Positions 5,454 through 12,010 of a stretch of DNA of 32,000 bases are shown piece by piece. This DNA comes from Clostridia bacterium (GTDB lineage Bacteria; Bacillota; Clostridia; UBA1381): assembly GCA_036307445.1 (NCBI GenBank), contig JAXJXP010000045.1:5587-37586 (forward strand). Direction: 5' to 3'. Position numbers and translations under genes: made by a program. The stretch's first letter is position 1. Every line of letters starts with the position of its first letter. The notes under the pieces are model-generated. The model ran no database searches. It was not told where the DNA came from and saw only the letters and a program-made list of their open reading frames with translations.

Positions 5454-5482
5454 TTGACAAAATTCGTATATAGTGTTAGAAT
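5454..5482 (+). promoter_or_regulatory. Sigma-A type promoter of the carAB leader
   Basis: TTGACA (5454-5459), 17-nt spacer, TAGAAT (5477-5482), with an extended -10 TG (TGtTAGAAT). Confidence 0.6.
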
Positions 5483-5514
5483 ATATAAAAATTAAGAATT
5501 GAGGAGCAAGTGTG

Positions 5515-5589
5515 ATGGGTGTACTATACGGTAAAATGAATATGATGCCTGACGCATTTGGTTTTTCTTTTGACAAATTCAGACGATGA
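5515..5589 (+). CDS. Candidate 24-codon leader peptide (MGVLYGKMNMMPDAFGFSFDKFRR*) upstream of carA
   Basis: GAGGAG (5501-5506) lies 8 nt before ATG 5515. The ORF ends AGA CGA TGA, and those last codons form the 5' arm of the downstream terminator. Too short for the ORF track. Expression is not demonstrated. Confidence 0.3.
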   Translation: MGVLYGKMNMMPDAFGFSFDKFRR

Positions 5590-5624
5590 TTGAAAGTAGT
5601 TGCTTTTATCATTGTCTTTTTTTT
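5582..5624 (+). terminator. Intrinsic terminator / attenuator in the carAB 5' leader
   Basis: Arm GACGATGAT (5582-5590) pairs with ATCATTGTC (5608-5616), including one G-U. An inner extension pairs 5592-5596 with 5603-5607 with one bulged nucleotide. Eight T (5617-5624) follow. It lies between the promoter and the carA ATG at 5653. Confidence 0.7.
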
Positions 5625-5652
5625 GGACAAAATACAGCAAGGAGGAAAAGGT

Positions 5653-6705
5653 ATGAAAGCTGAATTGATTTTGGAAAACGGTATGCGCTTTGCCGGAGAG
5701 CTTTTCGGTGATGAACGTGAGGTTGTCGGCGAGGTTATTTTCTCTACAAATATGGCAGTAGGCTATCAGGAAGCTATTACAAACCCTGCAGCAGCAGGTC
5801 AGATTGTTGTTACAACATTTCCGCTAATAGGAAATTACGGTGCAAACACTATTGATATGGAGTCGGATAAGGCTGCAATGACAGCATTGGTTGTTCGTGA
5901 AAAGTGTGATTTTCCGTCTAATTTCAGATGCGAAAAAACACTTGACAGCTTTATGAAAGAGAAGGGCGTTGTGGGTCTTTGCGGTATAGATACAAGAGCA
6001 CTTACAAGGGTTATAAGAGATAACGGTACTATGAAGGGTGTAATCGCTTTGACTGATATGTCAGACGGTGATGCAGAGGCTAAGATGGCAGGATTTGATG
6101 AATCCAAGCTTGTTATGAGTGTTACAACAAAGGAAAAATATACTTATACAGACAAGGGCGACAGAAATGTTGCAGTAATTGACCTTGGTGTAAAGAAAAG
6201 CACATTAGAGGAGCTTGCCAAGAGAAATGCGAAGGTAACAGTATTCCCGGCAGATGCTTCTTCGGAGGAGATTATGGCAATAAAGCCTGATGTTGTTTTC
6301 CTTTCAGGTGGTCCCGGAAATCCGGCTGACGCCCTTGCGCTTGAAGCTGTAAAGGCACTTCTCGGCAAGGTTAAGGTTTGCGGAATCGCATTAGGACATA
6401 TGGTTATAGCACTTGCGCTCGGCTGCAAGGTTGAAAAGCTTTCATTCGGACATCACGGCGGAAACTATCCTGTTAAGGATATAGCGAGCGGCAGAGTACT
6501 TATTACTGCTCAAAATGATAATTATGTTATTACAGGGCTGGCAGACGGTGTTTCGGAGACGTTCAAGAATGTAAATGACGGAACAATTGCAGGCTTTGAA
6601 TGTAAGGATAAGAATGCAGAGGGAGTGCTCTTTACACCCAATGGCGGAGAAAGCGTATTCCAGGACGGATTTGTATTTGACAGATTTTTAGGTAAGGAGG
6701 ACTAA
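5653..6705 (+). CDS. carA: Carbamoyl-phosphate synthase small subunit homologue with a degenerate glutaminase active site
   Basis: Start re-set to the ATG at 5653 (GGAGGA SD), giving [10 protein letters not shown]..., which matches CarA N-termini. The ORF-track TTG at 5590 lies inside the terminator. CarA hallmarks [12 protein letters not shown] and ITAQN are present. The triad motifs read GIALGHM instead of GICLGHQ, and FTPN instead of (Q/F)HPE. Confidence 0.9.
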
Positions 6706-6709
6706 GAGT

Positions 6710-9700
6710 ATGCCACTTGATAAAAGCATTAAAAAGGTACTAGTAATAGGCTCGGGTCCTATTGTAATCGGTCAGGCAGCTGAGTTTGACTATTCGGGAA
6801 CGCAAGCTTGCCGTGCCATTGAGGAAGAGGGGATAGAGGTTGTACTTGTAAACTCAAACCCTGCTACAATTATGACAGACAGAGGTATGGCATCTGAAAC
6901 TTATATAGAGCCTCTTACAATTGAGTATATCGAAAAGGTAATTGAACGTGAGCGTCCGGACAGCGTAATTGCAGGTATGGGCGGTCAGACGGGACTTAAC
7001 CTCACTTGTGAGCTTTACGATAGAGGAATCCTTGATAAGTACAATATGAAGGTTATAGGTACCTCTATTGAATCAATCAAAGAGGGCGAGGACCGTGATA
7101 GCTTTAAACAACTTATGGAACGCACCAATCAGCCGATTGCACCGAGTGCTATTGTTACCAATCTTGAAGATGGTTTCAAATTTGCGAGCGAGATTGGCTA
7201 TCCTGTAATTGTTAGACCTGCATACACTCTGGGCGGAACAGGCGGTGGAATAGCAGAGGACGAAACTCAGCTTGAAGAAATTCTTGCACAGGGACTTCAC
7301 CTCTCGAGAGTCGGTCAGGTACTTCTCGAAAAGTCTATCAAAGGCTGGAAGGAAATCGAATTTGAGGTGATTAGAGACGGGACGGGTAACTGTATCACCG
7401 TCTGCAGTATGGAAAATGTAGACCCTGTCGGTGTTCATACAGGCGACTCTATCGTAGTTGCGCCGGCACTTACACTTGCTGAAAAAGAGTATAATATGCT
7501 CCGTACAGCTGCACTTGATATAATCAGCTCGATTGAAATCAAGGGCGGATGTAACGTGCAGTTTGCACTTAATCCGGACAGCTTTGAGTATGCAGTTATT
7601 GAGATAAACCCGAGAGTTAGCCGTTCGTCAGCATTGGCGTCTAAAGCGACAGGCTATCCTATTGCAAAGATTGCATCTAAGATTGCACTCGGCTATAATC
7701 TTGACGAAATTAAAAATGCTGTTACAGGCACAACCTATGCGTGCTTCGAGCCGACAATTGACTATGTTGTAACCAAAATACCCAAGTGGCCGTTTGATAA
7801 GTTCTTTGGTGCTAAGAGAAATCTTGGTACAAAGATGATGGCAACCGGCGAAGTTATGGCTATTGGAAGCACATTGGAGGCATCGCTCTTAAAAGGTGTG
7901 CGTTCACTTGAAATAGGTCAGTACACTCTTGAGCATAAGGCGTCAAAGGAAAGAAGCTTAGAGGAGCTTATAAACAGAGTTGCAACGCCTGATGATGAAA
8001 GACTCTTTGATTTGGCTGAGCTTATTCGCCGTGGTTATCCGCTTGAGAAGATTGCGGAAGTTACCATAATGGACAAGTTCTTCCTTAAGAAGATTAAGAA
8101 TATAGTAGATGCAGAAGAAGCAGTTAAAAAGCTAACTCTTAAAGACTTTGATGCTGATACAATGCGTTATTATAAAAAGCTGGGCTTTTCTGACAGAGGC
8201 TTATCTCAGCTTTTGGGAGTATCAGTTCCTGAGGTTTATAATCTCAGAAAGGAGCTTGGTGTAATTCCGGTATACAAGAAGGTTGACACTTGTGCGGGTG
8301 AGTTTGAGGCAGTGTCGCCTTATTACTACTCTACCTATGATGCGGAAAACGAAGCAACTCCTTCTGACAAGAGAAAGGTAATAGTAATCGGCTCAGGACC
8401 AATTAGAATCGGTCAGGGTATTGAGTTTGACTACTGCAGTGTTCACAGTGTATTTGCTCTTAAGAAAGCAGGCATTGAAACAATTACTATAAACAATAAC
8501 CCCGAAACTGTAAGTACAGACTTTGACACCTCGGATAAGCTTTATTTTGAACCTCTTACAGAAGAAGATGTATATAATATTATTGAGCTTGAAAAGCCTG
8601 AGGGTGTTATACTGCAGTTTGGCGGTCAGACTGCTATTAAGCTTGCCAACTTCCTTGATGAGATGAAGGTTCCCATTTTGGGCACTCAGCCAGAACAGAT
8701 TGATGAGGCTGAGGACAGAGAGAAGTTTGACGAAATTCTCGAAAAGCTTGATATAAAGAGACCTAAGGGTAAGGCAGTGTGGAGTGTTGAAGAGGGTGTT
8801 GCTGAGGCTAATAAGCTTGAATACCCCTTGCTTGTTCGCCCTTCATACGTTCTTGGCGGTAAGGGTATGGAGATTACTAGAAACGAAACAGACCTTGTAA
8901 ACTACCTCACAAACGCGTTTAAGAATGATAAGAAGAACCCTGTTCTTATCGACCGTTATCTCGGTGGTAGAGAGCTTGAGGTTGATGCTATCTGTGATGG
9001 TGAAGATGTTCTAATCCCTGGTATTATGGAGCATCTTGAAAGAGCGGGTGTGCACTCCGGCGACTCAATTTCTATCTATCCTCCGCAGAATATCAGCGAT
9101 AAGATTATTGGCGAAATAATGGACGTAACATACAGAATAGCAAGAGAATTGAAGGTTATCGGTATGATTAACATTCAGTTTATCGAATATAGGGATGAGC
9201 TTTACATTATTGAGGTAAATCCGCGTTCGAGCCGTACTGTTCCGTATATAACAAAGGTTACAAATGTACCAGTTATAGATATCGCGACAAGAATTATGCT
9301 CGGTGAAAGCTTAAAGAGTATGGGATTTGAGTCAGGTATTGCACCTGTCACCAAGACGGTGGCTGTTAAAGTGCCCGTATTCTCAACAGAAAAGCTTCCG
9401 AGAGTTGAAGTCAGCTTAGGACCTGAAATGCGTTCGACAGGAGAAGTTCTTGGCGTTGGTAATTCATTTGTTGAGGCTATGTATAAGGGCTTTGTTGCGG
9501 CAGGTACCACCATTCCTTCGGCAGGCAGCACTATCCTTGTAACTGTGCGTGATATTGATAAGGAAAAATTCCTCCCGATAGCAAAGCGTTTTGCTGCACT
9601 TGGATGCAAGTTCATATCAACTGCAGGAACGGGTAAGCTTTTGAAGGATAATGGCATTGAAGTACAAATTTCAAAGAAGATTTCTGAAGGTGTACCCAAT

Positions 9701-9922
9701 GTCCTTGATGTAATCAGAAGCGGAATTGTTGACCTTATAGTAGATATTCCCAAGAAGGGTAATGACGTACATTCAGACGGCTTCAAAATCAGAAGAACAG
9801 CAGCAGAATGCTCTGTATCACTTATGACAAGCCTTGATACCGTTGCCGCTATGGTAGAGGTTATGGAGTCGGGTTATAACACAGACAAGACTTCAATTAT
9901 CAAGCTTTCAGACGTTAAGTAA
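6710..9922 (+). CDS. carB: Carbamoyl-phosphate synthase large subunit
   Basis: 1070 aa with a duplicated ATP-grasp architecture ([21 protein letters not shown] and [20 protein letters not shown]) and a C-terminal MGS-like allosteric domain. It starts 4 nt after the carA stop. Confidence 0.97.
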
Positions 9923-9941
9923 AAATATATAAACTTTTTTC

Positions 9942-9973
9942 AAAAATCCCCTTGACATAAGGGGATTTTTCTT
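9942..9973 (+). terminator. carB intrinsic terminator
   Basis: AAAAATCCCCTT (9942-9953) pairs with AAGGGGATTTTT (9959-9970) around a 5-nt loop, and a T-run follows. Confidence 0.65.
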
Positions 9974-9980
9974 GTATAAT
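9952..9980 (+). promoter_or_regulatory. Sigma-A type promoter of the ylxM-ffh operon, overlapping the carB terminator
   Basis: TTGACA (9952-9957, in the terminator loop), 17-nt spacer, TATAAT (9975-9980). An 8-bp 5'-UTR hairpin follows: CTGTAAAG (9986-9993) / CTTTACAG (10002-10009). Confidence 0.55.
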
Positions 9981-10031
9981 AGCAACTGTAAAGTTTTTTG
10001 CCTTTACAGGTAAGGATGGCGGTAGAGTAAA

Positions 10032-10346
10032 ATGAGTAAAAATCTTACTATGACCGTATTGCTCGATTTTTACGGCGAGCTTTTAACCGACAAGCAAAGA
10101 CAGGCACTTGTTTCTTATTATGATGAGGACTGTTCGCTTTCTGAGATTGCCGAAAATATGAGTATTTCGCGTCAGGGCGCGAGGGATTTTATCAAAAGAG
10201 GAGAAGCGCAGCTTTTGGAATTTGAAGAAAAACTTGGCTTAGCATCAAGGTTTATGAAGATAAACCAGTTGGTAGACGAGCTTGAAAAATCAAATCTTCC
10301 CGAAAATGTGCAAAAGCTGATTGATGAAATCAAGAACAACCTTTAG
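10032..10346 (+). CDS. ylxM: YlxM/UPF0122 helix-turn-helix protein (sigma-70 region-4-like) upstream of ffh
   Basis: 104 aa. The motifs LLDFYGELLTDKQR and ISRQGARDFIKRGE are typical of YlxM. It occupies the conserved position immediately 5' of ffh in Firmicutes. Confidence 0.88.
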   Translation: MSKNLTMTVLLDFYGELLTDKQRQALVSYYDEDCSLSEIAENMSISRQGARDFIKRGEAQLLEFEEKLGLASRFMKINQLVDELEKSNLPENVQKLIDEIKNNL

Positions 10347-10361
10347 AAAGCGTGGTGCAAA

Positions 10362-11714
10362 ATGGCATTTGAAAATCTCGGCGATAAGCTGCAAGACGTA
10401 TTTAAGGGCTTAAGGTCCAAGGGAAAGCTTACCGAAAGTGATATTAAAACAGCGATGCGTGAGGTTAAGCTTGCACTTTTGGAGGCTGACGTAAACTTTA
10501 AGGTTGTTAAGGATTTTGTAAAATCTGTGTCCGAAAAGGCTTTGGAGGCAGGAGTTTTGGAGTCGCTGACTCCGGGGCAGAATGTTATAAAGATTGTCCG
10601 TGATGAGCTTACTGCTCTTATGGGTTCTGAGAACGAAAGAATTAAATTTGCCAATACTCCGCCTACTGTAATTATGATGTGCGGTTTGCAGGGCGCCGGT
10701 AAAACGACTGCTTCGGGAAAGCTTGCACTTTCTATAAGAAAGCAGTTTGGTAAAAGACCTCTTATGGTAGCCTGCGACGTTTACAGACCTGCGGCTGTTA
10801 AACAGCTCGAGGTGCTTGGTGCGCAGATAAATGTTCCTGTTTTTTCTCTCGGTACAGATATAAGTCCTGTTGAGATTGCAAAGAAGGCAGTTGAACATGC
10901 GAAGGTTCACGGCAACGACCCTGTTATCATAGATACTGCTGGTAGACTTCATATTGATGAAGCGCTTATGCAGGAGCTTAAAGATATTAAAGAAGTAACA
11001 AGACCTGACGAGATATTGCTTGTTGTTGATGCAATGACCGGTCAGGATGCAGTTAATGTTTCGGAAAGCTTTAATCAGGAGCTTGATGTTACCGGTGTTA
11101 TTCTTTCAAAGCTTGACGGTGATACAAGAGGCGGTGCGGCATTGTCTGTTCGCGCTGTTACCAATAAGCCGATTAAATATGCGTCTATGGGCGAAAAGCT
11201 CTCCGATCTAGAGCCTTTCCACCCCGAGCGTATGGCAAGCAGAATTCTCGGAATGGGCGATGTACTTACTCTTATTGATAAGGCACAAGAGGTCATAGAC
11301 GAGGAAGAGGCAGCTGCGCTTGAGAAAAAGATGCGTGAGCAGAGCTTTGATTTGGAGGATTTCTTAGGCCAGATTCAGCAGATAAAAAAGCTTGGCTCAT
11401 TTGGTCAGATTTTAGGAATGCTTCCGGGAATAGACAAAAAGGCAATGGAGCAGATAAATACCGAAGAAACTGAGAAAAAGATGAGGCACACCGAGGCAAT
11501 TATCCGTTCAATGACTCCTGCTGAAAGAAAGAAACCGCAGATTATTGCGGCAAGCCGAAAGGTCAGAATTGCCAAGGGAAGCGGTACAAGAGTTCAGGAT
11601 GTAAATGAGCTTTTGAAGCAATTTGACCAGATGAAGAGGATGATGAAAGAACTATCAGGTCCAAAGCAGGCGAAGCTTCTTAAGAGAATGCAGAAGATGA
11701 AAGGCAAGATATAA
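10362..11714 (+). CDS. ffh: Signal recognition particle protein Ffh
   Basis: SRP54-type N and G domains (GLQGAGKTT, DTAGR, KLDGD) and a Met-rich M domain at the C-terminus. Confidence 0.97.
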   Translation: MAFENLGDKLQDVFKGLRSKGKLTESDIKTAMREVKLALLEADVNFKVVKDFVKSVSEKALEAGVLESLTPGQNVIKIVRDELTALMGSENERIKFANTPPTVIMMCGLQGAGKTTASGKLALSIRKQFGKRPLMVACDVYRPAAVKQLEVLGAQINVPVFSLGTDISPVEIAKKAVEHAKVHGNDPVIIDTAGRLHIDEALMQELKDIKEVTRPDEILLVVDAMTGQDAVNVSESFNQELDVTGVILSKLDGDTRGGAALSVRAVTNKPIKYASMGEKLSDLEPFHPERMASRILGMGDVLTLIDKAQEVIDEEEAAALEKKMREQSFDLEDFLGQIQQIKKLGSFGQILGMLPGIDKKAMEQINTEETEKKMRHTEAIIRSMTPAERKKPQIIAASRKVRIAKGSGTRVQDVNELLKQFDQMKRMMKELSGPKQAKLLKRMQKMKGKI

Positions 11715-11767
11715 CAAGTCCAAAGGGCTTTTATATACAAAAGAAATTATTTTGGAGGTGAAATAAA

Positions 11768-12010
11768 ATGGCAGTTAAAATCAGACTTAGAAGAATGGGT
11801 GCAAAGAAGGCTCCTTTTTATAGAGTTGTAGTTGCTGACTCAAGATACCCCAGAGATGGCAGATTTATCGAGGAAATCGGAACATACAATCCCTTGACAG
11901 ATCCCGCTACTGTAAATATTGATTCAGAGCTCGCTAAGAAGTGGCTTGGTAACGGCGCTCAGCCGACAGATACAGTAAAGTCTCTCTTGAAAAAACAGGG
12001 AATTATGTAA
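11768..12010 (+). CDS. rpsP: 30S ribosomal protein S16
   Basis: [26 protein letters not shown] is the canonical S16 N-terminus. SD GGAGGTG is present. Confidence 0.97.

Follow-up and report, generated by a model that had tools for sequence, protein, structure and literature searches.

Reviews name glutamine as the physiological nitrogen donor of all bacterial carbamoyl phosphate synthetases (CPSs), with only the animal CPS I using ammonia (PMC6245113, PMC4655335). Canonical bacterial CarAB, as in Escherichia coli, hydrolyzes glutamine with Cys269, His353, and Glu355 of the small subunit CarA, and both Cys269 and His353 are essential for this reaction (PMC6245113). CPS1 of ureotelic vertebrates has a CarA-homologous moiety with a dead amidotransferase domain and uses free ammonia; its ancestral ammonia tunnel is blocked, and external NH3 is proposed to arrive by an alternative path (PMC4655335). 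Here, we describe a carAB operon in a 32,000-nucleotide stretch of DNA (the window) from a metagenome-assembled genome (MAG) of a Clostridia bacterium (GTDB lineage Bacteria; Bacillota; Clostridia; UBA1381; GenBank assembly GCA_036307445.1, contig JAXJXP010000045.1, positions 5,587 to 37,586, forward strand). Its CarA has lost the whole catalytic triad and retained its fold, CarB is intact, both genes are under purifying selection, and operon structure and synteny are conserved. Judged from the triad loss and the intact CarB, free ammonia is most likely the nitrogen source of the enzyme. We consider it probable, if some way from assured, that this is a two-subunit, CPS-I-like, ammonia-dependent synthetase in which a pseudo-glutaminase CarA survives as a scaffold.

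The two genes and the CarA domains lie as follows (window coordinates).

5653..6705, + strand: carA, CPS small subunit with an inactivated glutaminase site (pseudo-glutaminase), 350 amino acids (aa) (NCBIfam, Pfam, phmmer, AlphaFold2, Foldseek)
5653..6162, + strand: N-terminal CarB-interaction domain of CarA, residues 1 to 170 (PF00988; 54 of 68 canonical-conserved positions kept; ratio of nonsynonymous to synonymous substitution rates [dN/dS], 0.115)
6163..6702, + strand: class-I amidotransferase-like domain of CarA without catalytic triad, residues 171 to 350 (PF00117; 39 of 73 canonical-conserved positions kept; dN/dS, 0.090)
6710..9922, + strand: carB, intact large subunit, 1,070 aa, presumed site of NH3-dependent carbamoyl phosphate synthesis (NF003671, alignment to E. 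coli CarB)

The carA gene starts with ATG at 5653, behind a strong ribosome-binding site (RBS; AGGAGG, 5640 to 5645). The protein scored 359 bits against NCBIfam NF009475 (cutoff, 221) and 339 bits against TIGR01368 (cutoff, 307), and Pfam placed PF00988 (CPSase_sm_chain; residues 5 to 131, 156 bits) ahead of PF00117 (GATase; residues 175 to 345, 104 bits), so that it has the CarA order of a small-chain domain followed by a class-I amidotransferase fold, above curated thresholds. CarB scored 1,535 bits against NF003671 and aligned with E. coli CarB over its full length. A preliminary description of this DNA, made from the letters alone, had called CarA full length and the carB gene 4 nucleotides (nt) downstream intact, and both points held. 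The 4-nt spacing suggests that carA and carB are co-expressed.

CarA columns were mapped onto E. coli CarA (about 36% identity) with phmmer against PDB chains 1t36_B, 1a9x_B, and 1c30_B (E, ~1e-65), and a multiple alignment of window CarA with 120 database homologs was made with MAFFT. Both catalytic motifs aligned without gaps in phmmer (the stretch around Ala246 in window CarA against PVFGICLGHQL in E. coli, and LFTPNGG against FQGHPEA), TAQNDNY was paired with TAQNHGF, and the two alignments agreed on the replacements below, for which the codons were read directly.

6388..6390, + strand: GCA, Ala246, replacing the nucleophile Cys269
6400..6402, + strand: ATG, Met250, replacing the glutamine-binding Gln273
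6517..6519, + strand: GAT, Asp289, replacing His312
6634..6642, + strand: ACA-CCC-AAT, Thr328-Pro329-Asn330, replacing His353-Pro354-Glu355
6643..6660, + strand: GGESVF, replacing the canonical A-x-P-G-P segment (E. coli Ala356 to His361) that borders the ammonia tunnel at its small-subunit end (alignment)

The preliminary description had proposed the loss of Cys269, His353, and Glu355 to Ala246, Thr328, and Asn330, and the columns hold in pairwise and multiple alignments, with its codon coordinates exact; its Gln-to-Met change and its altered glutamine-binding His (QNDNYVI) likewise fall at Gln273 and His312, the latter also a glutamine-binding column. Glutamine-binding Ser47 is Ala46 in the MAFFT alignment, where C/H/E is invariant at the triad columns of 93 canonical relatives. 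Window CarA thus has neither the triad nor the glutamine-binding Ser47, Gln273, and His312 of a glutamine-hydrolyzing CarA (EC 6.3.5.5). It appears to have lost glutamine hydrolysis, because it has kept neither the nucleophile nor the general base nor the partner acid and lacks several glutamine-binding residues.

It is very improbable that CarA still splits glutamine through non-canonical residues. The nearest candidate nucleophile is Cys243, three residues before the lost one (VCGIA), but its E. coli counterpart is Phe266, on the strand before, canonical relatives with Cys269 intact have it equally (PVCGICMGHQ), and its column varies (C/T/F/S) within the clade of closest homologs described below; on this alignment, Cys243 was ruled out as a substitute. 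Positions 353 and 355 are moreover neither His nor an acid in window CarA, the glutamine-binding residues are lost with them, and no newly conserved Cys, Ser, or His was found in the clade.

The window derives from a MAG, so that an assembly or sequencing artefact, or a freshly inactivated pseudogene heading for loss, had to be considered; both are scarcely credible and were rejected. An identical 350-aa CarA was assembled independently (Logan SRR24599392) and is also deposited as MEE0945056.1 (Clostridia MAG), and an ortholog with 92% identity from a species-level relative (locus L002, MAG JAHAZB01, Eubacteriales bacterium MB2.42) has the same Ala/Thr/Asn. Because synonymous divergence (dS) was saturated (>1) in most clade pairs, reliable dN/dS came from the window and L002 only: carA gave 0.10 at an unsaturated dS of 0.39, with its two halves as listed above, and carB gave 0.029. 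The AlphaFold2 model of window CarA was confident (mean predicted local distance difference test, 91.8; predicted template modeling score, 0.92), and Foldseek matched it to E. coli CarA 1a9x_B (template modeling [TM] score, 0.92) and to the inactive N-terminal moiety of human CPS1 (TM score, 0.88). All 20 full-length relatives have intact open reading frames (ORFs) without frameshifts. Instead of the frameshifts or stops, dN/dS near 1, and sporadic occurrence of a decaying pseudogene, we found intact ORFs, low dN/dS, a monophyletic clade, and conserved synteny. With purifying selection and a predicted CarA fold, the earlier reading of a retained pseudo-glutaminase rather than a decaying pseudogene therefore stands. 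An inactive glutaminase-like moiety kept together with the synthetase (triad absent, dN/dS ~0.09) is a feature of the CPS I type (EC 6.3.4.16).

Relatives had been named in the preliminary description as a place to look for the same substitutions, and the same or further-degraded motifs were found there. The 20 closest homologs (59 to 100% identity) have all lost His353, and a neighbor-joining tree with the catalytic columns masked groups them as one clade with nested triad states. Basal members are Cys-Arg-Glu, the next branch is Cys-Arg-(Lys/Asn/His), and the crown group, which includes the window, has lost Cys too (Ala, Ser, or Asp); clade member P0017 shows a separate, additional Cys loss. 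Read from this tree, the order of loss in the clade is His353, then Glu355, then Cys269, and such stepwise decay is the pattern expected after glutaminase activity turned dispensable. The former triad columns are highly variable in the clade (T/A/N/S/I/V/R at 353; N/H/C/G/T/K at 355).

Constraint on the two subunits differs. CarB is 90 to 97% identical within the clade and CarA 57 to 92%, and the CarA/CarB protein-distance ratio is 3.2 to 6.4 (2.4 for the closest pair, the window and L002), against 1.4 to 1.8 among canonical loci (n = 3). By these distances, clade CarA appears to evolve about three times faster relative to CarB than it does in canonical relatives. Of the 141 positions nearly invariant in the 93 canonical relatives, 93 are kept in the clade, divided between the CarA domains as listed above. 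Constraint was lost at Ser47, Cys269, Lys287, His312, Gln351, His353, Glu355, Ala356, Pro358, Gly359, and Pro360, so that relaxation is confined to the old active site and the tunnel exit.

All 26 CarB catalytic and tunnel residues checked are kept, including Glu217, Arg265, and the gate residues Cys232, Ala251, and Ala314 (ammonia gate as defined in PMC8674909). Clade and canonical CarB differ by seven conservative changes only (positions 269, 382, 426, 496, 524, 593, and 594), none of them catalytic or in the tunnel. The allosteric domain of window CarB is present and aligns with that of E. coli, with Lys954, Thr974, and Thr977, which we take to be residues of the UMP/IMP (uridine and inosine monophosphate) site of E. 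coli CPS, all kept. Some clade loci (among L036, L037, L043, and L045) have Arg265 replaced by Lys and Tyr261 by Cys or Phe (E. coli numbering); window CarB retains both residues. Arg265 is reportedly among the tunnel-wall residues that were changed to engineer the "perforated tunnel" form of the E. coli enzyme.

Triad loss was followed beyond the clade in two surveys, the genome-contig scan that yielded L002 and an HMMER search run exhaustively over 1.84 billion cluster representatives. Among the best 150 representatives matching window CarA, C/H/E was intact in 62 and not intact in 88; 147 were near full length, of which 82 lacked the Cys (67 of the 82 with Gly at 269), counts that are biased because a pseudo-CarA served as the query and because sequences that evolve fast fall into a larger number of 50% clusters. 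Census bias notwithstanding, triad loss spans many independent lineages as judged from these sequences. In the 82 Cys-less representatives, constraint was lost at Ser47, Lys202, Asn240, Cys269, His353, Glu355, Ala356, Gly359, Pro360, and Asp362, and the N-terminal domain and fold-determining glycines remain conserved. Gly359 and Pro360, invariant in the 93 canonical relatives, are thus variable in the window clade and lost across the Cys-less representatives; relaxation at Gly359, Pro360, and Asp362, shared by the clade with other Cys-less lineages, suggests that the tunnel has fallen out of use at its small-subunit end.

The genome-contig scan found nucleophile-less CarA in Akkermansia spp. 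(AMGLGHQ...FLPV), in many Opitutales and other Verrucomicrobiota (GVGFGHQ), in a Defluviitaleaceae MAG, a Clostridiaceae MAG, UMGS775, and a goat Clostridia MAG, and in two Paenibacillus genomes (GISLGHQ). Nearly all of these loci have a full-length carB next to the Cys-less carA, on the downstream side in Clostridia and on the upstream side in Opitutales; carB was absent within 10 kb only at the Akkermansia loci. With an Akkermansia sp. protein as query, the best 120 matches comprised 58 canonical and 62 non-canonical sequences.

A different fate for the domain would be a new role, as a ligand-sensing or regulatory site or as a docking surface for another ammonia-producing enzyme. Several replacements are conserved and specific to the clade (window numbering: Ala313 for Glu in 17 of 20, Phe315 for Ile in 16 of 20, Leu326 for Gln351 in 16 of 20, and Ala297 for Pro in 18 of 20) and could mean a repacked pocket with a new function. 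We regard this as unlikely, given that residues at the former triad positions differ widely among clade members, that the old site is merely relaxed across the 82 independent Cys-less representatives with no common new motif, and that no conserved partner gene was found beside the clade carAB operons.

Experiments on the E. coli enzyme bear on the ammonia-dependent reading. CarB alone makes carbamoyl phosphate from ammonia (PMC6245113), and variants with a blocked or perforated ammonia tunnel lose glutamine use and keep ammonia use (PMC4655335). The same outcome, loss of glutamine use with NH3-dependent synthesis kept, is given for laboratory variants comprising Cys269 mutants (to Ser among them), Gly359-to-Phe or -Tyr tunnel blocks, and CarB alone (PMC6245113, PMC4655335).

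In the mechanism that we propose, CarA would be retained because CarB needs a structural or allosteric partner, and it would act as a scaffold or activator. CarB would combine bicarbonate with free NH3 from the ammonia-rich gut, at the expense of two ATP, to give carbamoyl phosphate, and the NH3 would enter along a path that avoids the old glutamine site. The likely benefit would be one ATP saved per carbamoyl phosphate, because the glutamine synthetase step would be unnecessary. We infer that the two subunits form a complex, that NH3 is the physiological substrate, and that this enzyme is the main carbamoyl phosphate source of the cell.

Several points weigh against this mechanism. The ammonia reaction of the E. 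coli enzyme is described as requiring very high concentrations (PMC6245113). A clade-specific CarB change that would lower the Michaelis constant (Km) for NH3 was not found between clade and canonical CarB, and with only the seven conservative changes no structural basis for a lower Km can be proposed. The canonical baseline of the rate comparison is three loci only. Basal clade members, with Cys269 kept and His353 changed to Arg, may hold residual activity. Finally, a second canonical carA or CPS may lie elsewhere in the genome; the window covers 32 kb of a contig of ~143 kb, and the MAG has further contigs.

The carA leader bears on this last point. It contains the following features.

5454..5482, + strand: promoter-like site, TTGACA-17 nt-TAGAAT with an extended −10 TG, ~170 nt upstream of carA (consensus scan, 11/12; pattern match only)
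5515..5589, + strand: leader ORF of 24 codons, MGVLYGKMNMMPDAFGFSFDKFRR*, with its own GAGGAG RBS (conserved with synonymous changes in nine clade loci)
5581..5624, + strand: terminator-like hairpin, AGACGAUGAU...AUCAUUGUCU, followed by U8 (RNA fold)

A TTGACA...TAGAAT/TACAAT pair likewise lies upstream of carA in related loci. The leader ORF has a U-rich FGFSF codon run and ends in AGA-CGA-TGA; it precedes carA in all nine clade loci, with Arg before the stop in 9/9 and Arg-Arg in 8/9. Its last two Arg codons and stop lie within the 5′ arm of the hairpin. Folding of 5485 to 5655 gave a minimum free energy of −39.3 kcal/mol (z = −2.2). Of 12 loci, 11 carry the hairpin, with the 3′ arm and U8 identical in all of them; they include two of the three canonical relatives (L046 and L047), which do not have the Arg-Arg ending, and the third, L042, has no hairpin. 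No Rfam family (PyrR site, T-box, or others) was found upstream of carA at the gathering threshold or at E ≤ 1. The leader looks like a putative ribosome-mediated attenuator. Its signal could be arginine, read through the Arg codons, UTP (uridine triphosphate), read through the U-rich tract in the manner of E. coli pyrBI, or the two together.

Two CPS sets occur in some Bacillota, for example, pyrAA/AB and carAB in Bacillus. A second canonical CarA or a full second CPS could likewise supply glutamine-dependent carbamoyl phosphate here, leaving the pseudo-CarA/CarB pair as an auxiliary or pathway-specific enzyme, for example, an arginine-specific one; the two terminal Arg codons of the leader peptide could signal arginine-specific control, and the sequence covered of this genome is that of the window. 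We think this improbable, though it deserves more weight than a new role for the domain. The window contains a single carA-like gene, and so does each of the 47 related loci, which span no more than ±10 kb; the downstream gene order is common to canonical carAB in a related lineage; and CarB, at a dN/dS of 0.03, full length and with its allosteric domain and Lys954/Thr974/Thr977 kept, suits a general over an arginine-only enzyme. Even beside a second CPS, the present enzyme would remain ammonia-dependent.

On that ammonia-dependent reading, the window enzyme and CPS1 share a CarA-type moiety with a dead amidotransferase domain, and in both the old tunnel for ammonia leading from that dead site seems either blocked or no longer required. 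CPS1 differs in being one fused polypeptide of ~1,500 residues with an N-acetylglutamate requirement, and in the human enzyme the Cys (now Ser) is the only triad residue lost, whereas the window has two separate genes (two ORFs in place of the single fused polypeptide of CPS I), no triad residue left, a bacterial-looking allosteric domain, and an independent origin. The window enzyme would therefore work like CPS I but stand outside the CPS I lineage, given its separate subunits, independent loss, and bacterial-type allosteric domain. With canonical E. coli CarAB, it shares the two-gene operon, the domain architecture, the fold, and a fully conserved CarB, but not the glutamine-hydrolyzing triad.

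Natural Cys-less CarAs also resemble the engineered E. coli variants, most having Gly at 269 and Gly359 replaced as well. The engineered variants are single laboratory mutations without an evolutionary past, whereas the state seen in the window arose in nature, is ancient, involves several residues, and is kept up by selection. Those variants reportedly stem from Rubino 1986/1987 and Huang and Raushel 2000, and a Cys269-to-Gly form is said to be among them. Other amidotransferases with ammonia-dependent counterparts, such as the NH3-dependent NAD synthetase NadE, follow a similar theme, glutaminase function having been dropped where ammonia is available (PMC3376133). Ammonia-dependent families of the NadE type differ in that the glutaminase domain or subunit is usually absent, not kept as a pseudoenzyme.

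The preliminary description had given CPS I as the only precedent. It is the only characterized one but not the only occurrence, because triad loss is widespread in bacterial sequence data. It had also put the loss forward as possibly undescribed in bacteria, in agreement with our finding no published account of a triad-less bacterial CarA or a bacterial ammonia-dependent CPS in the open-access literature. A naturally triad-less CarA, selected and recurrent, would show a convergent CPS II-to-CPS I transition in bacteria and would offer natural experiments on the path of external ammonia to the CarB active site and on the non-catalytic role of CarA. Metabolic models of gut and rumen anaerobes would need different assumptions on nitrogen flux, because one ATP and one glutamine would be saved per carbamoyl phosphate, and a systematic annotation error would be exposed, because nucleophile-less proteins are named "glutamine-hydrolyzing."

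Whether the pattern is general is a more evenly balanced question. We give about as much credence as doubt to the proposition that bacteria living in anaerobic, ammonia-rich habitats have turned, repeatedly and in independent events, a housekeeping glutamine-dependent CPS into a CPS-I-like ammonia enzyme, with CarA kept as a dead-site pseudoenzyme scaffold. If true, there would be a large unrecognized class, misannotated as "glutamine-hydrolyzing" and including such Clostridia, Akkermansia, Opitutales, Thermosyntropha, and some Paenibacillus, and the textbook view that all bacterial CPSs use glutamine would be contradicted.

Cys-less carA loci outside the window clade are located as follows.

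~10001-11134 (L020, L021, L023, L025, L027, L028, L030, and L031): Akkermansia; also proteins P0125 to P0160
L012 to L014, L017 to L019, L022, L024, L026, L029, and L032 to L034: Verrucomicrobiota
8384-9520 (L006) and 10001-11137 (L009): Paenibacillus, Cys269 to Ser, in the operon pyrR-pyrB-pyrC-carA-carB-pyrF

In one Akkermansia species clade (human, roe deer, and goat gut MAGs), Cys269 is Gly and HPE is LP(V); its Cys-less member P0159 is named "glutamine-hydrolyzing" by NCBI. The loss affects such other species clades and not the whole genus, because a canonical group of 385 to 386 aa (A. muciniphila type) keeps C/H/E. Gut MAGs of Opitutales and other Verrucomicrobiota have Gly at 269 (GVGFGHQ), varying residues at 353 and 355, and the order carB-carA. 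Paenibacillus sp. IITD108 and a P. nanensis MAG have Ser at 269 with His353 and Glu355 kept, like the single change of human CPS1. CarA of the cultured anaerobe Thermosyntropha lipolytica DSM 11003 (P0282/P0404; WP_073092557.1, SHH06535.1), which is among the 82 Cys-less representatives, has Gly for Cys269 and Asp for His353, and WP_073092557.1 is again named "glutamine-hydrolyzing" by NCBI; this strain is a possible experimental system. The goat-duodenum Clostridia MAG locus L035, outside the window clade, encodes a CarA (7653 to 8687; GIGLGHR...FTPN) 52% identical to window CarA beside a CarB (8704 to 11913) 80% identical to window CarB, again a fast pseudo-CarA next to a slow CarB.

Spacing between carA and carB is 1 to 4 nt in all nine clade loci with retrieved DNA. 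Where contigs reach, the clade neighborhood is proA, a Cu_amine_oxidN1-domain gene, carA, carB, ylxM, and ffh. The canonical, triad-bearing L046 has carAB-ylxM-ffh-rpsP-KH-rimM downstream, and because carAB-ylxM-ffh-rpsP is common to both, the window carAB is a positional ortholog of ordinary carAB. In L037 (6587 to 7933) and L038 (2068 to 3414), a gene for glutamate dehydrogenase (ELFV_dehydrog) is found beside proA, two genes upstream of carAB, which is consistent with ammonia assimilation of the glutamate dehydrogenase type but no evidence for it.

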